Shown here piece by piece: positions 716-46,523 of a stretch of 64,000 nt of DNA; position 1 is the stretch's first letter, and every line of letters starts with the position of its first letter. The notes beneath the pieces are model-generated. The model was not told the origin of the DNA, did no database searches, and worked only from the letters and a program-made list of their open reading frames with translations. Both the position numbers and the translations under genes were made by a program. The stretch covers positions 14,694,001-14,758,000 of the forward strand of contig CM069164.1 of assembly GCA_035221665.1 (NCBI GenBank). The letters are read 5' to 3'. The DNA comes from Okamejei kenojei. Lineage: Eukaryota.

Positions 716-831
716 CTCTCAAAGTCAGAAGTTCCAATTGTTTTATCCCCTTTTAGGATGGTGTGGCTGAGAAACCTTTCCTGGACTGTCGTCAATTTAT
801 TGGCCAACAGCATATCCAATGCAGTGAGAAT
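716..831 (-). CDS. STRC: Stereocilin-family exon 9 (ILTALDMLLANKLTTVQERFLSHTILKGDKTIGTSDFER); gene continues beyond the left edge
   Basis: catttaccag|...AG|gtgagt, 116 bp, open frame, phase 0/2. Confidence 0.82.
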
Positions 832-2133: not shown

Positions 2134-2320
2134 CTGTGTACGGGACAGAAGCTGAAAGCTCTCAAACGGCAGGTATGCTAGCAGGTTACTGACATGGGTC
2201 AGGAACATCAGGGGCCAAGCCGACACACTGCTATAACTCCCTGATGCCAGGATCCACTGGACGAAGGCTGTCTTCTGGTCATCAGACAGCTTCCCAGAAA
2301 TCTGGTTGACCACAGCCATC
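2134..2320 (-). CDS. STRC: Stereocilin-family exon 8 (MAVVNQISGKLSDDQKTAF...VSAWP...LPFESFQLLSRTQ)
   Basis: ttttttattccag|...CAG|gtactg, 187 bp, phase 2/0; resembles human MRPEQKEALA...VPAWP...LPLENFLQLSPHQ. Confidence 0.9.
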
Positions 2321-3807: not shown

Positions 3808-3962
3808 ACTTCCTCCTTGTCCAGGGTCAGCGGTAGTGCTCTGATTTCAGACGTTGACAAGTGAGGTACAAAGTGAACAAATTCTTGGAACATATTTGGG
3901 TCAACGAGCAGTATTCTGTTGAAGAAGACCAACGCCAGAATCCTCTTCAAATCTTCCGGAAT
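3808..3962 (-). CDS. STRC: Stereocilin-family exon 7 (IPEDLKRILALVFFNR...FVHFVPHLSTSEIRALP...)
   Basis: ttccaatttcag|...GT|gtgcgt, 155 bp, phase 0/2; resembles human [21 protein letters not shown]. Confidence 0.87.
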
Positions 3963-6412: not shown

Positions 6413-6523
6413 CTGCAAACTCTTCCATCTTGTATTTAGGAGGTACAGCAGCTGTTTCAGATTTTGAATGTCAATTGCAAACAGTGCCACTTGAAGATCA
6501 CTTGCAGAAAGCTTCATGTATTC
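6413..6523 (-). CDS. STRC: Stereocilin-family exon 6 (EYMKLSASDLQVALFAIDIQNLKQLLYLLNTRWKSLQ)
   Basis: cttttccaaacag|...CAG|gtaaac, 111 bp, phase 0/0; resembles human AYLHMPPENLQQLV...KLQ. Confidence 0.85.
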
Positions 6524-8390: not shown

Positions 8391-8450
8391 CTTTACCAGG
8401 CCCACACCTGAAGATCCTCCTTCCTTCTGCACCAAGTCCAATAGCACAGA
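8391..8450 (-). CDS. STRC: Stereocilin-family exon 5 (SVLLDLVQKEGGSSGVGLVK)
   Basis: tttatttcctcag|...AAG|gtattg, 60 bp, phase 0/0; resembles human [21 protein letters not shown]. Confidence 0.85.
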
Positions 8451-8518: not shown

Positions 8519-10146
8519 CAGTGGCTTGCAAAAGTATTCATACCCCTTGAACTTTTCCACATTTTGTCATGTTACAACCACAAACGTAAATGTATTTCAT
8601 TAGGATTTTATGTGATAGACCAACACTAAAGTGGCGCATAATTGTGAAGTGGAAGGAAAATGATACATGGTTTTCAAATCTTTTTACAAATAAAAAACTG
8701 AAAACTGTGGCGTGCAAAAGTATTCAGCCCCCTTTACTCTGATACCCCTAAATAAAATCCAGTGCAACCAATTGCCTTCAGAAGTCACCTAATTAGTAAA
8801 TAGAGTCCACTTGTGTGCAATCTAATCTCAGTATAAATACAGCTGTTCTGTGAAGGCCTCGGAGGTTTGTTAGAGAACATTAGTGAACGAACAATGTTCC
8901 TTGGGCATCATGAAGCCCAAGGAACACACCAGACAGGTCAGGGATAAAGTTGTGGAGAAGTTTAAAGCAGGGTTAGGTTATAAAAAATATCCCAAGCTTT
9001 GAACATCTCACGGAGCACTGTTCAATCCATCATCCCAACATGGAAAGAGTATGGCACAACTGCAAACCTACCAAGACATGGCCGTCCACCTAAACTGACA
9101 GGCCGGGCAAGGAGAGCATTGATCAGAGAAGCAGCCAAGAGGCCCATGGTAACTCTGGAGGAGCTGCAGAGATCCACAGCTCAGGTGGGAGATTCTGTCC
9201 ACAGGGCAACTATTAGTCATGCACTCCACAAATCGGGTCTTTATGGAAGAGTGGCAGGAAGAAAGCCATTGTTGAAACAAAGCCATAAGAAGTCCCGTTT
9301 GCAGTTTGTCACAAGCCTTGTGGGGGACACAGCAAACATGTGGAGGAAGGTGCTCTGGTCTGATGAGATCAAAATGGAAGTTTTTGGCATAAATGCAAAA
9401 CGCTGTGTGTGGTGGAAAACTAACACTGCACATCACCCTGAACACACCATCCCCACTGTGAAACATGGTGGTGGCAGCATCATGCTGTGGGGATGCTTTT
9501 CTTCAGCAGGGATAGGGAAGCTGGTCAGAGTTGATGGGAAGATGGATGGAGCCAAATACTGGGCAATCTTGGAAGAAAACCTGTTAGAGTCTGCAAAAGA
9601 CTTGAGACTGGGGCGGAGGTTCACCTTCCAGCAGGACAACAACCCTAAATATACAGCCAGAGCTACAATGGAATGGTTTAGATCAAAGCATATTCATGTG
9701 TTAGAATGGCCCAGTCAAAGTCCAGACCTAAATCCAATTGCGAATCTCTGGCAAGACTTGAAAATTGCTGTTCACAGACACTCTCCATCCTATCTGACTG
9801 AGCTTGAGCTATTTTGCAAAGAACAATGGGTAAAAATGTCAGTCTCTAGATGTGCAAAGCTGGTAAAGACATACCCCAAAAGACTTGCAGCTGTAATTGC
9901 AGTGAAAGGTGGTTCTACAAAGTATTGACTCAGGGGGGCTGAATACTTTTGCATGCCACACTTTTCAGTTTTTTATTTGTAATAAAATTTGGAAACCATG
10001 TATCATTTTCCTTCCACTTCATAATTATGCACCACTTTGTGTTGGTCTATCACATAAAATCCCAATAAAATACATTTACGTTTGTGGTTGTAACGTGGCA
10101 AAATGTGGAAAAGATCAAGGGGTATGAATAATTTTGCAAACCACTG
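8519..10146 (+). mobile_element. Full-length Tc1/mariner DNA transposon, Passport-like (IR/DR type)
   Basis: TA|cagtggcttgcaaaagtattca ... tgaataattttgcaaaccactg|TA. ~215-bp TIRs with an inner direct repeat (aaaagtattcagcccc) and a transposase ending KGGSTKY. Confidence 0.96.
8910..9928 (+). pseudogene. Tc1 DD34E transposase with a 1-bp frameshift at ~8987 and the catalytic E replaced by A
   Basis: ATG 8910 gives MKPKEHTRQVRDKVVEKFKAGLGYKK, which shifts frame into ORF 8999..9928 (GRPPK, WSDE, QQDN, SPDLNPIANLW). Confidence 0.93.
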
Positions 10147-11483: not shown

Positions 11484-13914
11484 CCCAAAACACTGGAGCA
11501 CCTCTCTTTTGATCCTGTAGCTCTTTTGATGATGCAAATAGTCTATCACAGTGTAGATGACTCGATTCCTTGCATTCTGAAGCAGCTGAAGGGATGAGAT
11601 TAGACCATCCTCTAATGCCACAAGCCCTAAAACCACCTTGTTTATGGCCTCTGTCAGCCCAGTAGTTAGCTCCTCAGCAGCTGTGCTGCCTAAGGTGAGG
11701 CCGATGTGTTCCAAACCGCAGAGGACCAAGGCAGGAACATCTGCCAGCCGGAGCAGCTGGTGTGGGCAAGGCCCTGGCGTGCCCTGGCTGCAGGTCCACT
11801 GGAGTCTTGAGATGAGATCCTGCACGGGGCAGACTTCGGTCTCCTGAGGAGTGCTGGAGTTGCTGATCGACAAACAGTCTTGTTCAACCCAGGAGTTGTC
11901 CGGGTCGCTGGTCAGGGCGTGAAGCACTCCAGGGTCCCGGCAGACCAATGTGTTGAAATTGTCCTGATCGTGGTCGAAGCAGAGGGCCACGGTTGTTGGG
12001 TCCACTCGATACACTGTCCAGGAGCTGTACCTACACGTGATGCCTGTGTCTATCCCATCTACTTGGGCATGGGCACAGTAGGCAGCGAGCCAGGTGCCCT
12101 CGCCACTGTTCAGGAGCTCCCACACTCGGGTAGAGTTGTCACACGCAACTTGTACAAAATTGTCCACGTCGTACTGGCTGCAATATTCAACGGCGGCAGG
12201 GTCTATGGAGGCTGGCCCCGTCCACGCCTCGTAGCGGCAGCTGGTGTCACCGGTGGCCTGGATGTTACACGGAGACTGCAACCACGCGTTCTCGGGATAC
12301 TGCAGAAGCTTGGTGATCAGCGCCTGGTCTTGACAGACGAGTCGGGAGAAATTCGCCTGGTCGTTCGACCAGCAGAAGTCCACGAGGTAAGGGTCGACCG
12401 GCTGCCCGGCCCACTGGCTGTACTGGCAGACTGCCGCCGGGTCGGTCTCCGTCCCGTTCACCTCCCAAGAGGAAGGGGGGCCGCAGAAGTCAACGAGCCA
12501 GAGGTTGTACGGGTCGTTCAGCAGCTGCTGGAGAACAGCTGGATTCTGACACACCCAGATGTTGAACTGCTGGGCGTCGCTGTTGAAGCACAAGGCGACC
12601 ACGGTGCTGTCCACTGCCGCCGGGCGAGCCCACGTCCCGTAGTGACACAGATCGCCCACGGCTCCGATCAGGTCCCATGGGCCGGCGGTGGGAGTGGCCG
12701 GAGAGCCCGGCTCCGGGAAGGCGGAGGCGGCTGGGACCGCGCAGACCTGGCGCAGCCAAGCGTTGGCCGGGTCGGCCAGCAGTTGCTCCAGGAGAGCGGC
12801 AGATGTGCAGACCATCAGGTCGAAGGTGGAGGGGTCCAGGTCCCCGCAGAGGGCCACCAGGCTGGGGGGGACAGGCGGGGCTCCCAGACCCAGCCACTCC
12901 TCGTAGCGGCAGCGGCGCCGGGCGCCACAGGCGGGGGGCAACCACTCATTGCCCGCCTCCTGGCTCAGTTTGTGGAGGAGGCTGGAGCTGCCGCACACCG
13001 ACGTGTTGAAGTTGTCCGGGTCAGTGGTGCGGCACAGAGCCACGATGGAAGGGTCGGGCACCTCCTGCTCCCAGCGGCTGTACTGGCAGAAGAGGCTGTA
13101 GCTGCCAGTCGGGGGGAGGCCACCGCATAACCACAGCCCCAGCGGATTCAGCGCCGAGCCGGGACTGCACACGGCGGCCGAGAATCCGTCACCGTCCTCG
13201 CTGGCGCAGAAGGCGAGCAACTGGTGGTCGGCGGGGGGCGAGGATACCCACTCCTGGTAGCGGCAGTGAGAGGCCACGCTGAAGGCTGGAGGTGTCCCCG
13301 GGCCGAGGACGTCTGCAGCCCCGGGGACGGAGGCGAGAGGGTCGGGGGAGAGGGAGCAGAAGGCTCCCAGCCACGAGTGCGCCGGGTTCTTCATCAGGGC
13401 TTCCAGCAGCGAAGCATTGCCGCAGACAGTCCTTCTAAAGCCGGCCTCGTCCACCACCGAGCAATATCCGATGTCGGTGGAGTTGATGAAGTCGGCGCCG
13501 TAGTTGCAGGTCTGGGTTCCCAGCTGCCGGGTCTGACGGGCAGGAGGGTGGCTCCTGGATCCCAGACCCATGGACTGGCAGTGCTGGAGGAAGAGGCCGG
13601 CTCCTTGTGTCACGGATGAGGCCACCAGGGCGACGCTCCTGCAAACACGCTTCATCAGGGGAGCCGCGCCTCTCGCTGCCAACCCTCTCACCAGCCCACA
13701 GACCCCGGGCAGCCAGGCCGCTTCCCCGCAAACCGTCCCGTTCGTCCAAAGCCACGGGTCCTGGTCGCAGTTGATGGGGACGTCTGGAAGTTTGGACATC
13801 AGCTGGAAAACGCGAGCAGTTGCCCGGGGGTGGGCTGCAGACCCAGCCTTGGCGATCTCTGCGACGTCCAGCGGAACAGCTTCGAAATTCCACGACAGGT
13901 TGTGAAGTCGGCCC
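11484..13914 (-). CDS. STRC: Stereocilin-family exon 4 (2431 bp) with 8 tandem Cys-rich repeats
   Basis: Within ORF 11217..14072. Starts GRLHNLSWNFEAV (human GVRHNLSWDVQAL) and ends RNRVIYTVIDYL...REVLQCFG (human RRSVLRTIGEYL...MELLACFS). Acceptor acgcag|, donor GGG|gtaagg. Confidence 0.92.
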
Positions 13915-15501: not shown

Positions 15502-15526
15502 CAGTTGAGAAGCTGGTTCAGATTCC
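15502..15526 (-). CDS. STRC: Stereocilin-family 25-bp micro-exon 3 (GNLNQLLNW)
   Basis: cgcag|GGAATCTGAACCAGCTTCTCAACTG|gtaagt. Phase 1 in and phase 2 out join exons 2 and 4 in frame; matches human 'GNLQQLLLW' (recalled). Confidence 0.92.
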
Positions 15527-16641: not shown

Positions 16642-17445
16642 CTTGGGGGCATTGTCCCATTCCATCCAATTTAATTATATTGCTTGCAAAGAACATTCCC
16701 TCGAAGAAAATGTCCGTTAGCTTCAATGATATTTGTTTTGCCACTTTACAAAGATAGGAGTCAAAAAATGGAAACACATTCTGACTAAAGAAATGCCAAA
16801 TAGTCTTTAGCCCAAAAGAAAGAATCTGTTGCACCTTCCCAATGAAACTTAACAGCAGGTTTGGAATATTAAAGCCATCCTTCCACATTCTGGAGCGATC
16901 TTCATGAACACTGGATGAAAGAAACACTTGGGCAAAATCACTTAATGATCTTCTATTCATAGATGAAGCAAAATAACAAGCTTCCTCCTGCATGGACAGC
17001 AATAGAGCTTTCCAATTAACTCCAAATGAACTCAACAGCTCCTCAGCAAGTGCAAAGAGAGGTCTAAAGTCTTCAGTTTCCTGAAAAATATGCAGAAGTA
17101 GCTGAGGTAGCAGTTGCTGCAACCCCAACCCAATGTCTCCAAGCTGACTATTATATAGAACCTGTAACATTATGGAATACAATTCCCACTTGTTCTCTGG
17201 AATGATGTTGGACATTATCATCTGGATGACCTCCGGGAGAGCAGAATATCCCTGGCGTGTCTGCGCACGGAGCTTCTGGTCCAAAATCTTCCATAGTGAT
17301 TTACTGGAATCATTTAGTTCAGGAGATAACTGGGGACTCTTCACTTGTGCCTCTATCTGTGATTCTCCTGTTGGGGTCAGTGTTTTAGTGTGTTCCCGGA
17401 TTGTAGTATTCACAGATCTCTTCCAGCTCGAGAATTTTGTAGTTT
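16642..17445 (-). CDS. STRC: Stereocilin-family exon 2 (~268 codons, ends ...LDGMGQCPQG)
   Basis: Contains most of ORF 16565..17413. End resembles human STRC 'DTNGQCQG' (recalled); donor CAAG|gtaagg. The 5' boundary is uncertain (see findings). Confidence 0.85.
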
Positions 17446-21619: not shown

Positions 21620-22839
21620 CAGAGCGCTCCATAATGTTTGAGACAGACCCATTATTTAATTATTTGCCTCTGTACTCCACAATTTGAGATTTGTAATAGG
21701 AAAAAAAAATCACATGTGGTTAAAATGCACATTGTCAGATTTTAATCAAGGCCATTTTTATACATTTTGGTTTCACCATGTAGAAATTACAGCAGTGTTT
21801 ATACATAATCCCCCCATTTCAGGGCCCATATTGTTTGGGGGACAGCAATGCCATGTAAATGAGAGTAGTCATGTTTAGTATTTTGTTGCATATCCTTTGC
21901 ATGCAATGACTGCTTGAAGTCTGCGATTCATGGACATCACCAGTTGCTGGGTGTCTTCTCTGGTGATGCTCTGCCAGGCCTGTATTGCAGCCATCTTTGC
22001 CGTATGCTTGTTTTGGGGGCTGGTCCCGTTCAGTTTTCTCTTCAGCATATAAAAGGCATGCTCAATTGGGTTCAGATCGGGTGATTGACTTGGTCACTCA
22101 AGAATTGACCATTTTGTAGCTTTGAAAAACTCCTTTGTTGCTTTAGCAGTATGTTTGGGATCATTGTCTTGCTGTAGAATGAACCACCAGCAGATAGGAT
22201 GGGTCTATACACGTCAGAATTCATTATGCTACTACCATCAGCAGTTGTATCATCAATGAACATGTGAGCCAGTTCCTTTCGCAGCCATACATGCCCAGGC
22301 CATAACACCCCCACCATCGTGTTTCACAGATGAGGTGGTATGCTTTGGATCTTGGACAGTTCCTTCTCTCCACCATACTTTGCTCTTGCCATCACTCTGA
22401 TATGTTAATCTTCATCTCATCTGTCCAAAAGACCTTTTCCAGAACTGTGGTTGCTCTTTTAAGTACTTTGTGGCAAACAGTAACCTGGCCATCCTATTTT
22501 TGCAGCTAACCAGTGGTTTGAATCTTGCAGTGTAGCCTCTGTATTTCTGTTCATGAAGTTTTTGCGCAGTGGTCATTGACAAATCCACACCTGACTCCCG
22601 AAGAGTGTTTCGATCTGTCGGGCAGGTGTTTGAGGATTTTTCTTTATTATAAAGAGAATACTTCTGTCATCAGCTGGTGAGGTCTTCCTTGGCCTGCCAG
22701 TCTCTTTGCGATTAGTAAGCTCACCAGTGCTCGCTTTCTTCTTAATGATGCTCCAAACAGTTGATTTTGGTAAGCCTAAGGTTTGGCTGATGTCTATAAC
22801 AGTTTTATTCATGTTCTCATAATGGCTTCTTTGACTTTC
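21620..22839 (-). mobile_element. Degenerate Tc1-like transposon (second family), 3' part with one TIR
   Basis: TA|cagagcgctccataatgtttgagaca terminus with a related inner repeat at ~21822-21845; transposase fragment DISQTLGLPKSTVWSIIKK...GRPRKTS (ORF 22573..22812). Confidence 0.88.
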
Positions 22840-25800
22840 TTTTTTTTGTAATAATATTTTTATTAAAAGGAATCCATCATAACAACGGTATTACAACTTA
22901 TCAAATACACAACCAACTTATTTCAATAAGTATACGAATGTTATGAATAGTACTTATAAACTTCTATTTTTTTTTAAAGTAGAAAAAGAAAAGAATAGAT
23001 TTGAATCAATAAGAGTGGTGATTAAATAATAATTTTGATTATAAAGGAAGAGAAAACGAAAGAAGAGGAGAAAAAATATATATGTATATGTATATATTCT
23101 TGTTATATGTATTTAATTAAAATAAAGTATTATATAGAAAAAGAGAGAGATTATACTATACATCTTAATAGTGAATAACAATTTCAAATACAATATTAAT
23201 GGAGACATGTCAAATCAATATACAAATCAAAAAGAAAAACAAAGAGTTATTTTCATCTAATCCTGCCGGGTACCCATTGAGTTGTGATGCCAAGAACAGC
23301 TACCCCTTCAAATATTCTGTATATGGAGACCATATCTGTTCAAAGAGTTCGTATTTGTCCATTAGGACAAATCTGATTCTTTCCAAATGCAACGTCTCCA
23401 ACATTTCCACTGTCTACATTTTAATTGTGGGGGATAATGTTCCCTTCCAAAATTTCAATATAAATTTTTTCCCTATTATCAAACAGTAATCCAAGAAATT
23501 TCTTTGGTTTACTGTTAATGTTAGATTTGAATCCGGAACTCCTAATATTATTAATTTTGGATCTGGGTCTAGTTTAATTTTAAGAACTTCAGAAATAACT
23601 CTAAAGATTTCTATCCAATAATAATTACGTTTTATACATGTTACAAAACTATGCGTTAAATTAGCTTCCAAGTTCTGACATTTATCACAAATAGGAGAAA
23701 TGTTAGAATAAATTCTATTTAATTTCGTTTTTGAGTAATGTAATCTGTGTAATACCTTAAATTGTATCAATATATGTCTAGCAACGATGTATACATTGTA
23801 GACTTTCTTCCCAAATTTCCTTCGTTATAGATAAACCCATTTCATTTTCCCATGTTTGTCGATATATTTCCGAAGTTGGGATTTCCTTATCCAAAATAGT
23901 ATTATATATATACGCTATTAATTTTTCTGTATTTGGGTGTTTATTAAACAATTCATCTAATAATCCTGGTTTTCTATTTTTATAGTCTTGCGTATTTGAC
24001 AATATAATTTCTAATTTGTAAATACCTAAATATGTTATTTGACTGCAATCCATAGATATCCTGTAACTCTTGAAATGAGAGAAATTTTCCTTCCTTATAA
24101 AGGTGTTCTATCCTTTTAATTCCTAAATCATTCCAATGTTTAAACCCCTTGTCCAATATAGAGGGCTTAAACAAAAGATTATTCATAATTGGCAAACAAA
24201 GTGACAAATTATCCATATGTAGGGTCTTAACTATTTGTTTCCAAATACGTCTATTGCTATGAATTATAGGGTTGTTACCATACATTTTTTTTTGTACTTC
24301 CCTTGGTGCAAAAAGAATCAAACCTACATCAAAAGGCAAACAGTCTTCCTTTTCCATCTTTAGCCAGCTTGGTTCATGATCTAAATTTACCAACCAAAAA
24401 TTCATATTCTTAATCTGAACTGCCCAGAAATAATATAGGAAATTTGGTAGTGCTAGTCCACCATTTATTTTAGATTTACATAGATGTTTTTTTACTTATT
24501 CGATGGTTTTTATAGTCCCAAATAAAACTATTAACCAAAGTATCTATATTTTTAAAAAACATTTTAGGGAGATATAAGGGGATTGCTTGAAATAAATATA
24601 ACAATTGTGGTAAAAAAAATCATTTTTATAGCATTTATTCTACCGATCATTAATATAGGTAGTGTTTTCCAATATAAAAATATATTTTTTTAGTTTGTTT
24701 TAATAATTGAGGGTAATTATATTTAAATAGACAGTTATATGATTTAGATACATTAATTCCTAGATATTTGAGTTTGTCCGTAACTATTTTAAGTGGGAAT
24801 TGTTCTAATATATTTAATTTTATTCCAGTTATAGGCATAATTTCACTTTTATTCCAATTAATTCTATACCCAGAAAATGTACTAAACTTAGTTATAACAT
24901 TAAATAGATTAGGAATACTAATCTCCGGTTTTGTAATATAAATTAAGATGTCGTCTGCGTATAGAGATATTTTATTCGTTGTAGTTTTGGTATTATATCC
25001 ATATATATTATATTTCTGGTTCTGATCTAATCCTTTCGGCTATTGGTTCTATTACCAGAGCAAATAGTAATGGTGATAACGGGCATCCTTGTCTACAACC
25101 CCTAAAGAGTTTAAATTTTGCTGATAGCATTTGATTTGTTAATATTCTTGCAGTTGGATTCGAGTATATGATTTTTACCCATTTGGAGAATATATCCCCC
25201 AGTTGAAATTTCTGCATTATTTTAAATAAATATGGCCATTCAACCTGGTCAAATGCTTTTTCAGCATCTAAGGACATGACAGCTAGTTCAGTATCATTCA
25301 CTCTTTTTGAGTACATGACATTGAATAGACGTCTCAGATTATAGGATGAATAGCGTTTTGGAATAAAACCTGTTTGGTCATGATGTATTAATTTATTAAT
25401 CACTAAACTTAGCCTCTGAGATAAAATTTTAGTTAGTATTTTTTGATCAGTATTTAAAAGAGCTATTGCTCTGTATGATCCAGGGTCTTCCAAATCTTTA
25501 TCAGCTTTAGGGATAAGTGTAATTGTAGACTCATTTAATGATTCTGGTAACTTTCCTTGTTCATAAGCATATTTATATATTGTATGTAAGCGTGGAGAGA
25601 TCAGATCATGAAACTTCTTATAAAATTCAACACCTAAGCCATCAGAGCCTGCCGCTTTTCCGTTATTTAATGATCCAATTGATTCTTCAATATCTTTTAC
25701 TGATATATCAGCGTTTAACAAGTCTCTACCTTCCTGATCTAAACTATTAACCTGACATTCTTGTAGGAATGTTTCCATTCCATCTGATTGTCCTGCTAGT

Positions 25801-26753
25801 TTAGATAAGTAAAGATTTTGATAATATTGTAAAAATGTATCATTGATATCTTTTGGTAAAGTCAATATTTCTCCTTGATCAGATCTAATTTTATGTATCA
25901 TTTTCTCCTCATCTAATTTTCTAAGCTGTCGTGCCAGTAATTTTTGTGGTTTATCCCCAAATTCAAAATGTACTTGTTTAGTCTGTTGAAAAAGTTTAAT
26001 AATCTGATTTGAGTATATTTTATTTAGCTTGTATTTTAATGATGCAATTTTATTACTTAATCCCTTAGAAGGGGATATTGCATTTTCAATATCTAATAGT
26101 TTTATTTCATTTTCCAACTTTTGTTGAGTCTTTCAATTTTCTTTATTAAAATATGCTTGTGCTGATATTATCGCACCACGCATAAATGCTTTAAATGTAT
26201 CCCAGAGCAATGATGGTGAAATTCCAGGTTTGTCATTAGTTTCAAAAAATAATTTAATCTGTTTTACCAAGTGATCATAACAAGCCCTATCCTTTAATAT
26301 TTGGGGGTTGAGTCTCCAGTTAGAGGTTTTAATAATTATATCTTTTAATTTTATCTTAAATGTTAATGGAGCATGATCCGAGATAATAATATTTGGAACG
26401 AGTAGGTTCCAAATACAGGTGAAAAGAATGAATATTCTCGACCAGATGGGTTATCAGTTCTCCAGATATCCTTAACGTTTGCTGTGTTAATAAAAGAATT
26501 TATAAATGTATTTCACTTAGAAGTGGTTTTCCTTTTCGTTGATGATCTATCTAAATAATTATCTAAGGTACAATTAAAATCTCCTCCAATTATTAGATTA
26601 TGTTGAGTGGATATAGGGATATTGTTAAATATTTTCTTGAAGAATAATGGATTATCAAAATTAGGACCATATATATTCATAAGGATTACTTTTTTAGAAT
26701 ATAATTCACCTGTAATTATTATATATCTACCCTCAACATCTTCTATTATTGAG
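22840..26753 (-). mobile_element. 5'-truncated L1-clade LINE (ORF2: partial APE endonuclease, RT, C-terminal zinc knuckle), multiply frameshifted
   Basis: NIYGPN and GGDFN (EN); YRAIALLNTDQKIL, LDAEKAFD, GCRQGCPLSPLLF, YADD at ~24950 (RT); CDKC...H...C. Short poly(A) at 22840 and TSD ctttgactttc at 22829-22839 and 26754-26764. Confidence 0.95.
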
Positions 26754-26868
26754 CTTTGACTTTCATTGGCATAACTTTGGTCCTTAAAGTTTCCAAATGT
26801 GATGGAAAGACTGGAGGAAAGACTGGGTGCCGAGAGCTCTCTTATCACCTGCATCAAGTAGGCAATTA
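26754..26868 (-). mobile_element. 5' remainder of the Tc1 interrupted by the L1
   Basis: Removing the L1 restores RTKVMPMKVKEAIMR, leading into the transposase N-terminus. The right boundary is approximate and I could not find the second TIR. Confidence 0.65.
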
Positions 26869-28179
26869 GTGATTAATTGACTCAGATGGACACATGAACA
26901 GCCATGGAACAGAGGGATACGGACTATGTGCAGACAGATGAGATTAATTTAATTTGGCATAATGGTCGGTACAGACATGTTGGGCTGTAAGGCCTGTTAA
27001 TGTGCCATCATAATCTATGTTCTATTTCCATGAAACACAGAAGGTCACTCTCACATACTCAAGAGTCTCAAACTTCCTGTTATTCCAACTGCACTCAGGT
27101 ACTAGAAGCAGAGTCCAGGCTATGCTGTGAAATTAGCCTGCTGCTGAACTTGCAGCAGATTCGTTTTGGTGGAGGCTCAGAAACTGCTTCATCCCACTGG
27201 GGAGAATGGCTCCGAGGGAGCGAGGTAAGCTTCAGATAACTTACATTGGTTTAATTACGTAATCAGTAAATTCAATGCATTTAAATATTTTAAAGTCGCT
27301 TTTGGTGTTTCAAATAATTATATTACTAGTTTTCTTGATAGTATGACTATTTTTCCTTTGTTTTAAATGTTTGTGAATGTTAAGATTTTTAATATTTTGA
27401 CATCTGCTAAGACTTGGGCATGGCTGAGCTGGATGTGGGAAGTCTGCTGGCAGCACCGGGACCAGCAGATTGACAGCATGGACAAGTTGGGCTGAAGAGC
27501 CTATTTTCATGCTGTATAACTCTATGACTTTATTGGGAGCAGATTTTGGCACTGAGCTGCCACAGGATGCCACCAGAGAAAGCGGCTTGCTGCTCACCAA
27601 TGTGCGCACAATGTAATGGCTAGTGGGTGAGTGTGGCCATTACTTCGTACTGTGTACTGTGGGTATTGAGCCATCAGAAAAGGTACAAGGATTTACCAGC
27701 ATGTGAACTGAGAAGTTATGACTATCAGTAAATTATGCACAACCTGGCTTTTTTCCTCTGAAAGAAGAATATCTGGGAGTGACTGGATAAACATATTTAA
27801 TGATATGAAGGAGATCAACAGATAAGCTACATACTCTCCAGGACCGGAGGTCATAGATCTGAGAATCACTGCTAAATTCAATGGGTTTATCCTGAAGGCA
27901 AAGGAACATAAAATGTATAGTTGTAAACAAATGTTTTTCGGACAGTGAGAGGGGGAAGTTTATAATGATAAAACCATGTGGTGTGGGAAAGCAATTATGA
28001 AGCAATTGTGGAGAGAAACAAAATTATTACCTCAGATTGATAACATTTCCTCAGAATATTAATGCAAATTCATCAGAATTCTACCAGGGCTTAGAGTTAA
28101 GTTGTGAGAATAAGTATATAAATCTTGCTGGTAAACCACTGAGCTCCCACTCACAGAAATAATCGAAAGATAACGTGAA

Positions 28180-36496: not shown

Positions 36497-38270
36497 AGAA
36501 ACATAGAAATGTGGTGCAGAAGTAGGCCATTCGGCCCTTTGAGCCAGCACAGCCATTCCATATGATCACGGCTGATCATCTAAAATCAGTCACCCATTCC
36601 TGCTTTTCCCTCATATCCCTTGATTCCTTTAACCATATGAGCTAAACCTAACTCTCACTTGCAAACATCCATTGAATTGGCCACTGCTTTTTGTGGCAGA
36701 GAATTCCACAGATTCGCAACTCTCTGGGTGATGCAGGAACACTGTTCCTGCATCTAGCCTGTCCAATCCTTTAAGAAATTTATATATTTCTATAAGATCC
36801 CCTCTCATTCAGTGAATACAAGCCCAGTCGACCCATTCTTTCATCATATGCCATGACGCCAACCCGGGAATTAACCTGGTGAACCTACGCTGCACTCCGT
36901 CAATAACAAATATGTCCTTCCTCAAATTATGAGACCAAAATTGCACACAATACCCAGGTGCGGTCTCACCAGGCCCTTGTACAACATAGAAACATAGGTA
37001 ATAGGTGCAGGAGTAGACCATTCGGTCCTTCGAGCCTGCACCGCCATTCAATATGATCATGGCTGATCATCCAACTCAGTATCCCGTAACTGCCTTCTCT
37101 CCATACCCCCTGATCCCCTTAGCCACAAGGGCCACATCTAACTCCATCTTAAATATAGCCAATGAACTGGCCTCAACTACCTTCTGTGGCAGAGAATTCC
37201 AGAGATTCCCCACTCTCTGTGTGAAAAATGTTTTTCTCATCTTGGTCCTAAAAGACTCCCTCCTTATCCTTAGACTGTGACCCCTTGTTCTGGACTTCCC
37301 CAACACCGGGAATAATCTTCCTGCATCTAGCCTGACCAACCCCTTAAGGATTTTGTAAGTTTCTATAAGATCCCCCCTCAATCTTCTAAATTCTAGCGAG
37401 TACAAGCCGAGTCTATCCAGTCTTTCATCATATGAAAGTCCTGACATCCCAGGAATCAGTCTAGTGAACCTTCTCTGTGCTCCCTCTAAGGCAAGAATGT
37501 CTTTCCTCAGATTAGGAGCACAAAATTGTACGCAATACTCCAGGTGTGGTCTCACCAAGACCCTATACAACTGCAGCAGAACCTCCCTGCTCCTATACGC
37601 AAATTCTTTTGCTATGACAGCCAACTGGGGTAGGACCTCCATGCTCTTACACTAAAATCCTCTTGCAATGAAGGCCAGCATACCATTAGCTTTCTTCACA
37701 GCCTGCTGTACCTGAATGCTTACTTTCAGTGACTAATGTACAAGCACACGCAGGTCTTGTTGCACCTCCCCTTGTCCTAATCTGACACCATTCAGATAAT
37801 AATCTGCCTTCCTGTTCTTGCCACCAAAGTGGATAACCTCACATTTATCCTCATTATATTGCATCTGCCATGCATCTGCCCACTCACCTAACCTATCCCT
37901 CACCCTGTAACCTCATATCATCCTCCTCGCAGCTCACACTGCCACCTAGCTCTGTGTCGTGAGCAACCTTGGAGATGCTACATTTAATTTCCTATATCTG
38001 GGATCCCAGCACTGAGCCTTGCGGTACCCCACTAGTCACTGCCTGCCATTCTGAAAAGGACCCATTAATTCCTACTCTTTGCTTCATGTCTGCCAACCTG
38101 TTCTCTATCTATGTCAGTACCCTACCCCCCCCAATACCATGTGCTCTAATTTTGCACACTAAGCTCTTGTGTGGGACCTTGTCAAAGGCGTTTTGAAAGT
38201 CCAGATACACCACATCCAATGGCTCTCCCTTATCCATTCTCCTTGTTACATCCTTAAAAAACTCCAGATA
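36497..38270 (-). mobile_element. CR1-clade LINE RT fragment containing a nested younger copy (~36984-37621)
   Basis: ORF 37076..37642 (LYRVLVRPHLEYCVQF...QRRFTRLIPG...RRLRGDLIETYKI...RTRGHSL); second 3' tail at ~36984; KAFDKVPH at ~38170-38195. Confidence 0.9.
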
Positions 38271-44422: not shown

Positions 44423-44999
44423 TCCTTGTATATGAAACCCTGGTTGCTCTACATGATTATTAACATAACCAATGAACAACCTCACTAGTTGGATAGAAAC
44501 GTTTTAAACACTCATGGAGTGTGGATGTCATTGGCAAGATCAACATCCATTGACCTACTAAATGTTGTGTGGCCTAATCAGCCACCCCGGTATTGTTTAG
44601 TCAATTACATTGATCTGAAATCACATATAATACAAACAGAGCAAGGATAGACAATTTTCTTTCCCAAGATATATTAATGAATCAGATGGGATTTTATGAT
44701 AATCTAATAACATGGTTATTCTTTCTCATATTTGTTTATTCCAGATTAACTGAAATCAGCTCCCGTGATTTAGATTCAAACCTTTAGATTAATCTGTCTG
44801 GCCCAACATAATCATCAAACTATGCACATAACCCCAACTACATTCTATGTCCATTCTATTGAGGCGATCATTTGATTTATGCTGCAAACAAAGGCATTTT
44901 GATTTAATTTCCATCAAGCAAAACCAAAAACAGCACAATACTAAACTCTCTGGCTCTTCTCTTATCCTTGTACTCCCATTGGATAATTCCTGAACTAAC

Positions 45000-45126
45000 C
45001 TGGTATGCAAAGGCTTGCGGAGAGTTGTCAATAATGATTGTTTTTGAAAGATCCCTTCCGAGGATATTCAAATCCTTTATGTAATTTCCCTGCACACACA
45101 CACAATGCTCGCGGAATAGCCTGTGC
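45000..45126 (-). CDS. CTDSPL2: CTDSPL2 exon ([42 protein letters not shown])
   Basis: 127 bp, phase 2/0, inside ORF 44904..45143. Confidence 0.97.
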
Positions 45127-46523
45127 CTAGACGAAAAAAACATTGCACAATAACAAAACTAGCGTGAAAATGAATGCTGTATTAGATTTGAAAATTAAAA
45201 ATTTTAAATATCTAAATTAAAAAAAAAATAAAATCTTGAATGAACTGGTATTTTAAAAAGGAACGCAAAATTGAATGTCCAAGGTATGGAGTGTTGCAAC
45301 TACATTGGCAATAAGCCAATTACAAAAATTCAAATGCGCCATAAACTGGGCAGACAATGTATGTGAAGAAAAAGAGCAGATTCAATATTAGTAATATAGC
45401 ATCAGCTCTTAAAACACAAATTATTTTGTGTGCAAAAAAATGTATATGATCACAGAATCCAGAGGTGATACACAGGATCAGAAAATACAGTACTGAAACA
45501 GGCAAGATTGCACAAGAAACTTTCCATTAGAATCATATTACAATTGTATTCTCTTGCTTAGACGTACGTAAACCTGGGACACAAAGTGTGGAAAAGACAC
45601 TGCAATTCATGATAGCCTTTGCTGTTAGCATTCTCACATTTGAAAGGATTAAGATCCTTTGTGAGCACTTTTTTTTAGTGGTGAATGCACAGGGTGTTGC
45701 AATGGAGAGACATTAAATTGAAACACTTTCTACCTGTGGATTTCTACTAGTGGATTTCAAAGATCCATTGACATTTTTCAAAGGACGTTCTTCCAGCCCT
45801 TCAAGCAACATCTACCACTCATTAAATATTATCAGATGAAATAAACTATGAAATTTTAACGTATCGATTTTGCTCCTCACAAATCTGTTGTTACATAATT
45901 AATTGGCTAAAAGGTTCCTCGCGGTATGGGGTGATGAAACGCAGCAAATGTACACAATGTTTCATTCTGTACATTCAAATGCAATACAATTTTAAAATAT
46001 AAAAATGGGGTGGGGGAAGCAGCACTGTTGCATAACAGGGCCAACTATTTTTTCCAAATGGAAGGACAGGTGGAAGTGGACATTTTATCCTAAATCGTCC
46101 TCTATACCAGCTGGCAGGCAACAGAATGAGACCCGGTCATGCAGCAGAGTGATCATGTAACTCCACTGGCAACCCAGAGACCTGGACTAAAGATGCAGAG
46201 ACACAAATTGAAATCCTACAAAAGGATAATCTAATTCAGTTAATTAAATAAAAAATAAATGAAATAATAGGATTGTCTTTAAAAATCCATTCTCTTTAAT
46301 TTGCTTGTTTGTGTCTCCAGCAATTCTCAACTGCCTCTTGAAATGGATTAGTAAACCACTTGATTCAACGGAAATTTTGGGATAGACAACAAATTCTGGC
46401 CTTATCAGTGATGTCCACATCTTTGAATAAAGTAACTGGGAGAGGTCAAGGGCAGGAACACATATTGGTTCACATTGCTTTCACTCTTTCTCAATTAGGG
46501 CACGGCCATTGCATAGAACATAC

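Follow-up and report, generated by a model that had tools for sequence, protein, structure and literature searches.

Eight tandem four-cysteine units in the strc1 gene of Okamejei kenojei and their counterparts among vertebrate stereocilins

Results

The strc1 gene in the window

We analysed a window of 64,000 nucleotides from Okamejei kenojei (GenBank assembly GCA_035221665.1, contig CM069164.1, positions 14,694,001 to 14,758,000 of the forward strand); all positions given below are those of the window. On its minus strand lies a gene with a Pfam PF21058 region and full-length similarity to stereocilins, which place it in the stereocilin family. Eight exons were found:

16642..17445, minus strand, first of the upstream strc1 exons found, probably exon 2 (43% to Stegostoma residues 48-303 by tblastn; 5' border inferred)
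15502..15526, minus strand, micro-exon of 25 nt, probable exon 3, preserving the frame
11484..13914, minus strand, strc1 exon that carries the array, 2431 nt or 810 codons, entered in phase 2 and left in phase 0 (AG acceptor, GT donor, open frame)
8391..8450, minus strand, downstream exon, PF21058 region, match to shark/ray stereocilins
6413..6523, minus strand, downstream exon, match to shark/ray stereocilins
3808..3962, minus strand, downstream exon, match to shark/ray stereocilins
2134..2320, minus strand, downstream exon, match to shark/ray stereocilins
716..831, minus strand, downstream exon, match to shark/ray stereocilins; the gene extends beyond the window start

From 17445 to 716 the exons join into one open frame of 1296 codons (counted from the inferred 5' border of the first), and the identity of the downstream exons in their matches to stereocilins was 51-90%. 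The part of strc1 in the window appears intact, and the gene continues beyond the window edge. An exon 1 encoding a signal peptide was looked for and not located. The two upstream exons splice in frame, which fits the placing of the array in exon 4 by an earlier note on this DNA.

The array-bearing exon is enclosed by a minus-strand stop-to-stop frame of 961 codons (14102-11217), and its single-exon status was judged from splice signals and the open frame, not from RNA. Over its full length it matched the Narcine, Mobula and Stegostoma proteins at 46-57% identity. PF21058 starts at exon residue 776 with an E of 0.012, short of the cut-off, because the domain is interrupted by an intron; orthologue P0004 reached 337 bits. 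The upstream neighbour in the window is represented by one exon of a CTDSP-family phosphatase, which may be akin to CTDSPL2 of the human STRC region. A local duplication would place both paralogues, strc1 and STRC, near such a neighbour.

The eight-unit array

Eight units were reported for this exon by the earlier note, and all eight are present, spanning 13508-11874 on the minus strand with the starts CNY, CRY, CQY, CRY, CHY, CQY, CRY and CRY:

13356..13508, minus strand, unit 1, 51 aa; no Trp after C-x-Y
13125..13265, minus strand, unit 2, 47 aa; second half 8 residues short
12927..13088, minus strand, unit 3, 54 aa
12741..12911, minus strand, unit 4, 57 aa; linker to unit 3 of 5 aa
12483..12647, minus strand, unit 5, 55 aa
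12267..12428, minus strand, unit 6, 54 aa
12075..12239, minus strand, unit 7, 55 aa
11874..12035, minus strand, unit 8, 54 aa

The units measure 47-57 aa from first to last cysteine and each of the eight has exactly four cysteines, with 12 residues between Cys2 and Cys3 in all of them and 21 between Cys3 and Cys4 in seven, so that the pattern of the module is C-x14/20-C-x12-C-x21-C. Across the alignment the columns C, Y, C, D, F, C, W and C do not vary. The earlier description of the units is accurate, with two small departures: unit 1 lacks the first Trp, and unit 2 is shortened in its second half. The linkers are 5-31 aa long, and the array contains six N-x-S/T sequons, where several had been noted.

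Pairwise identity among the eight units was 26-45%, and none of the 11 rows of Tandem Repeats Finder overlapped the exon, hence the expansion must be old. To control for chance, we took a profile of 60 units, all from bony fish or frogs, and scanned 2112 six-frame segments covering the window with it; eight matches of 25.7-66.8 bits resulted, all in the array exon, and the next best reached 6.7 bits. No higher-order repeat was detected among the window units (all lags p above 0.19). The GC content of the array exon is 63% (GC3 0.76) and that of the other measured exons 40-54%; since the exon is GC-rich, its Pro/Gly/Ala-rich linkers may partly reflect base composition.

Among six named elasmobranch orthologues the identity was 59-69% in the units vs 24-47% in the linkers, in agreement with the old, conserved expansion that had been suggested. 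When the window was compared with Stegostoma, the best match was the same-position unit in all eight rows (45-76%). From shark to paddlefish there was no clear diagonal, and the order of the units turns over between lineages. Over 127 units Tyr, Trp and Asp were near-invariant and all four cysteines were retained in 92-100%, and because of this retention two disulfides per unit can be inferred. The arrays are acidic (D+E 8-14%, K+R 4-5%) and carry 1.1-3.0 sequons per 100 aa, denser than the rest of the protein in 7/7. The named strc1 orthologues have hydrophobic C-terminal tails. Two further observations were made on single units. Their position-by-position conservation exceeds what a pure spacer needs, and the tree group of unit 8 includes the last unit of ray-finned fish and that of protein P0043.

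Predicted fold and searches for known domains

When the whole exon was modelled with AlphaFold, the helical units were confident and the linkers were of low confidence (pTM 0.31). Units 3-4 alone gave a pLDDT of 94.4 and a pTM of 0.78, each unit having three main helices plus short helices at its ends. The models suggest modules on a jointed chain, in which closely linked pairs would pack rigidly.

Pfam gave no family for the array of 545 aa, with E allowed up to 1. Similarly, no match to the array was found among PDB chain sequences, no usable one among ESM Atlas features, and nothing with E below 0.001 by Foldseek with the 810-aa and 120-aa models. VIA-align over 48161 chains gave three at Z 5 or more and none at 8; the best (CIP2A core; Z 5.7, rmsd 3.2, 115 aligned) was at the background level for helical proteins. 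Generic ARM/HEAT helical repeats lead the VIA-align rows, and mesothelin was absent from the best 50. The description of the array as a helical repeat without a name was thus borne out. The module is without a match in Pfam-A or PDB sequences, although empty searches are no proof of a new fold.

Tandem disulfide-type modules of 50-60 aa, such as EGF, LDL-A, saposin and the DB module, form arms of secreted proteins. The strc1 module differs from these in its own four-cysteine pattern, its all-helical predicted fold and the lack of a Pfam match. It shares with the ARM-HEAT solenoid of mesothelin, otoancorin and stereocilin (PF06060, PF21058) an all-helical extracellular character, and the C-terminal part of strc1 is itself PF21058; however, the window array precedes PF21058, has no PF06060 or PF21058 match inside and has low-confidence linkers between its units. 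The solenoid was predicted for the family in PMC2628672, and a mesothelin structure is described in PMC10035497. The array is a module without a Pfam name and a distinct architecture inside the known stereocilin family.

Identity of the gene as strc1

Trees were built from the non-repeat region with an otoancorin root under LG+G4, and the clade groups were named after the first tree. The window gene grouped with Mobula (support 100/99), as befits a ray or skate, in an array-rich clade of sharks, rays, paddlefish, teleost strc1 and frogs (98/98); the other teleost strc genes, turtle, birds and mammals formed an array-poor clade (100/100). A quick tree of 30 rows showed the same two clades, with support of 99 for the strc1 clade when the window row was left out. 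Forcing all teleosts into one clade cost 486 log units (p-AU 0.00022) and forcing the frogs together with amniotes cost 197 (p-AU 5e-6), these AU p-values being a guide, as the groups were post hoc, the model was LG+G4 and several rows differed in composition. The two-clade split is nevertheless safe because the log-likelihood gap is so large. The one lamprey protein retrieved stood outside both clades in the 30-row tree and with the ear-type proteins at 80/82 in the other.

The best match of the window protein was Narcine strc1 (57%). Among the matches listed, the NCBI symbol strc1 was carried by five array-rich proteins (Narcine, Embiotoca, Pseudorasbora, Eucyclogobius and Garra) and by no array-poor one. 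On the evidence of the trees, the window gene is a member of strc1, a paralogue of ear-type STRC and not an orthologue of mammalian STRC, contrary to the earlier naming of it as STRC proper. Therefore the mouse hair-bundle data reach it by paralogy only. The same trees show that the strc1/STRC split predates the divergence of sharks and bony fish, and imply that both paralogues were inherited by the cartilaginous-fish lineage. No ear-type STRC of a shark, ray or amphibian was among the matches listed, each search covering up to 8000 candidates, and strc1 might therefore have an ear function in these animals.

The nearest known counterpart is zebrafish strc1 (stereocilin 1, ZDB-GENE-110411-215). 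The window gene falls in one clade with the cyprinid proteins to which NCBI gives the symbol strc1 and shares their array-bearing layout, with eight units to the six of teleost strc1. Mammalian STRC (DFNB16) and teleost strc are of the same family, with a PF21058 region after the array and the module at the same place; they differ in forming a separate clade, in having three degenerate units vs 6-15 well-kept ones and in their N-terminal region.

Copy number across vertebrates

It was found that the number of units is stable inside a lineage and different between lineages. Eight units were counted in the window and in Narcine, Mobula, Stegostoma, Heterodontus and Chiloscyllium (the first unit of the last is cut), that is, in five of the six named elasmobranchs; the Hypanus model, which begins within the array, has six. 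Ray-finned strc1 has six units in 20 of 20 proteins, from paddlefish to pufferfish, and so have all ten of the fish proteins P0049-P0058. Among the frogs, Rhinoderma has 14, Pelodytes 13 and Pyxicephalus 9, and P0043, a sister of the frogs (SH-aLRT 93), has 15; P0043, P0044, P0045, P0047, P0048 and P0063 were placed by BLAST or tree only. Two fish proteins have 8 and 12 units by near-identical duplication (P0047, units 79-98%; P0045, blocks 73-100%), and these duplications may be recent or assembly artefacts. A 3-unit period was found in P0043 (p below 0.0002) and, more weakly, in Heterodontus and Pyxicephalus, the p-values being nominal for 10 proteins and up to 6 lags. An isoform of Rhinoderma without the array, X5, was considered as a case of exon skipping and rejected: it is a late-starting model that begins at residue 1203 of the longer isoform.

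With a balanced profile at 12 bits, 0-2 units were counted in seven ear-type teleost proteins, two in turtle and 0-1 in five birds, and none in five mammals, in lamprey or in four otoancorins; the otoancorin of the ray-finned set (0/1) also had none. The maximum for this profile over 400 shuffled proteins was 5.2 bits.

The 8-unit profile was also run over 1.84 billion representatives and gave 38 matches. Leaving aside three weak ones (P0074, P0076 and P0077, with 2-3 stretches at 37-39 bits), all matches with four or more full units resembled fish or frog proteins, as judged from name, BLAST or tree. Occurrence of the module outside stereocilins was rejected: P0069, P0071, P0073, P0075 and P0078 are chance matches without a 15-bit unit, three of them WD40 or ankyrin proteins. 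The protein searches returned no array-rich amniote protein. Copy number varies, as had been supposed; with 6 units in ray-finned fish and 9-14 in frogs beside the 8 of sharks and rays, the array is a strc1 feature of aquatic jawed vertebrates and not of elasmobranchs alone, and a tuning peculiar to elasmobranchs does not agree with these counts. We hold the identity and the distribution of the strc1 array to be very well founded.

Divergent units in ear-type STRC

In 15 aligned ear-type rows, three units lie at the position of the array. With hhalign on the pooled ear-type rows they were recognised at probabilities of 96.6%, 78% and 16%, and the window 8-unit profile matched the third turtle unit at 92%. 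The pattern C-x12-C-x12/24-C occurred three times in lamprey, three times in turtle and twice in cat (shuffle P below 0.0005, 0.0005 and 0.0065, respectively), and once in Myripristis (P 0.10). The mammals inspected were cat, bat and false killer whale, and in all three the degenerate traces that had been expected in mammals were found. The aligned rows and profiles show that ear-type STRC, from lamprey to mammals, retains three divergent units. The simplest history would start from an ancestor with three units, which STRC kept while they eroded; in strc1, in-frame duplications inside the exon would have multiplied them.

Discussion

It is already known that zebrafish has two stereocilin genes, with expression in the ear and in the lateral line. 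At 3 dpf, in situ hybridisation showed strc in the ear only and the strc-like CR293520.1 in the lateral line only (PMC4619078). The zebrafish identifiers of 2015 have been retired (PMC10299642), and the link made here to zebrafish rests on gene symbols, the transcript id of the 2015 in situ work differing from today's strc1 id. In PMC9851615, strc1 is named a lateral-line marker and is also placed in an inner-ear gene module, with a Moran's I of 0.098 vs 0.595 for strc. According to the data of PMC12361438, 69.6% of the mature hair cells in the wild-type lateral line have strc1 and 0.4% have strc, and the log2FC of strc1 is +1.36 in the lateral line and -1.26 in the ear; in prdm1a mutants, which take an ear-like fate, strc1 falls (log2FC -0.84) and strc is switched on. 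One integrated table of the same source has 99.8% of ear cells 'expressing' strc1. Because of this table and the inner-ear module, zebrafish strc1 is described here as lateral-line-enriched, not as proven exclusive.

Mouse STRC builds tectorial-membrane attachment crowns and horizontal top connectors (PMC12789471), and its anchor is disputed, GPI-anchored according to PMC2628672 and secreted according to PMC12789471. The strc1 protein would be secreted, and its C-terminal tail would probably carry a GPI anchor, which would set a mesothelin-like solenoid beside the membrane. Each unit would close two disulfides, and the acidic, N-glycosylated array, its unit amplified inside one exon to 6-15 copies, would form a jointed extension arm of some tens of nanometres. 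With such an arm, strc1 at the tip of a lateral-line bundle would extend into the cupula and secure it, much as mouse STRC secures the tectorial membrane. We give about even chances to the proposal that the array works as an extension arm, stabilised by disulfides, by which hair bundles of the lateral line are tethered to the cupula. Attachment to the cupula, one of the gels named in the earlier functional guess, is its best-fitting part, given the lateral-line enrichment of zebrafish strc1. A main role at otoconial or ampullary gel fits poorly, as that enrichment points elsewhere and the array is kept in teleosts and frogs, zebrafish and Xenopus being non-electroreceptive (PMC5429088).

A rather unlikely reading, and one that is compatible with an extension arm, takes the units as binding modules that grip a glycoprotein or glycan of the cupula (otogelin-like or zona-pellucida-type), the copies adding avidity in flow-exposed organs. 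The match of same-position units in all eight window-Stegostoma rows, the higher identity of units than of linkers and the near-invariant Tyr, Trp and Asp would suit it, as would the lectin-like role proposed for the family in PMC2628672; however, the invariant residues are explicable as a fold core, the order of units turns over between lineages and no ligand is known.

We consider it improbable that the array self-associates, making side links between the stereocilia or kinocilia of neuromast bundles in place of a cupula attachment. The presence of mouse STRC in horizontal top connectors is in its favour and tandem modules might suit antiparallel pairing, but the strong net acidity of the units disfavours pairing without cations, and the mouse links also require otogelin and otogelin-like (PMC12789471). 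Equally improbable is that elasmobranch strc1 is the general or only stereocilin of ear, neuromasts and ampullary organs, with its eight-unit length tuned to those gels. Such a role would account for the absence of a cartilaginous-fish ear-type STRC among the matches listed, and a sturgeon STRC transcript, its paralogue not stated, is enriched in ampullary organs and neuromasts (PMC7720607); the array nonetheless also occurs in non-electroreceptive teleosts and in frogs, where it is longer, and by the tree cartilaginous fish inherited both paralogues. There were no matches to stereocilin in the paddlefish supplement of PMC5429088. That copy number is neutral, the product of unequal crossing-over in a long exon and of no functional meaning, is very improbable: the near-identical duplications in P0047 and P0045 (possibly assembly artefacts) and the frog range of 9 to 14 are of the kind it would produce, but eight units are constant in sharks and rays, six persist from paddlefish to pufferfish and all four cysteines are kept in 92-100% of 127 units.

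The lateral line was lost in amniotes and is retained in aquatic amphibian stages, according to PMC11979771, the text of which does not mention stereocilin. Judged by its absence in protein searches, strc1 was probably lost in amniotes along with it, and strc1 would then be a likely case of a gene lost together with the lateral line. On a wider reading, which we regard as possible and on balance doubtful, the module represents a novel extracellular fold that occurs in stereocilins only, and it determines how far the bundle-to-gel link can reach. Stereocilin would then have split in jawed vertebrates into two genes, one for the ear, fixed at three units, and one for the lateral line. The array of the lateral-line gene would serve as a molecular ruler or as a multivalent cupula anchor, with 6 units in ray-finned fish, 8 in sharks and rays, and 9-15 in frogs and their kin, and this gene would have been lost when amniotes left the water. 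If this were true, the link-forming domains hit in DFNB16 would be the three cryptic units seen in mammalian STRC.

In the open-access literature that was searched we found no description of the repeat, its counts by lineage, the hidden copies in STRC or the paralogue tree with apparent amniote loss. How neuromast bundles are fastened to the cupula lacks an explanation in the literature cited, where strc1 is only a lateral-line marker and its domains are not analysed; the array is a concrete candidate part, and natural length variants of it run from 6 to 15 units. For stereocilin, a gene commonly involved in deafness, the three mammalian copies map the domains of its N-terminal third, which should aid the reading of missense variants and the judging of which parts are dispensable in a shortened gene. 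In addition, annotation is corrected, as many fish and shark proteins called 'stereocilin' are the paralogue and not the orthologue of human STRC.

Composition and gene models of the array exon

The exon of the stereocilin paralogue strc1 that holds the eight tandem four-Cys units (11484–13914, minus strand) had a GC content of 0.63 and a GC3 of 0.76. Its CpG observed/expected ratio was 0.69–0.76, whereas that of the window was 0.36, and in composition the exon resembles a CpG island. We also noticed that Ala, Gly and Pro appeared more frequent in this exon in ray orthologues than in shark orthologues.

The protein P0044, a close relative (87–89% identity), has a gene model with one exon only, which runs on into both introns and starts in the same intronic frame as is seen in the window. 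This model is a gene-model artefact, arising because the array exon is long and open.

Unit variants in other vertebrates

Two fish strc1 proteins, P0045 and P0047, contained 12 and 8 units, respectively, both with near-identical unit duplications, which represent either recent growth of the array or assembly artefacts. In ray-finned strc1, unit 4 carried an additional conserved cysteine (V-C-C), found in paddlefish and teleosts (e.g. P0008 and P0015); it has no obvious partner and might be bonded to another unit or another chain. The one lamprey protein retrieved, the stereocilin P0081 of Lampetra fluviatilis, had three divergent units, and its N-terminal region was like that of ear-type STRC.

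Surroundings of strc1

The following features were found around the array exon:

8984–9928, plus strand, stop-free frame of 314 codons for a Tc1/mariner transposase, within the intron that follows the array exon
21822–22890, minus strand, broken Tc1 element
23414–26872, minus strand, fragmented LINE reverse transcriptase
37076–37651, minus strand, fragment recognised by translation, which we take to be CR1-like
45005–45125, minus strand, CTDSP-family (NIF) phosphatase exon in ORF 44907–45158 (Pfam NIF, E 2e-16; PDB matches)

The Tc1/mariner element at 8984–9928 is possibly a young insertion.

The phosphatase exon, which has AG/GT borders, shares its strand with strc1 and lies upstream of that gene. 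It is presumably similar to CTDSPL2, a neighbour of human STRC. If the exon is CTDSPL2-like, the two stereocilins may have arisen by local duplication and not by genome duplication.
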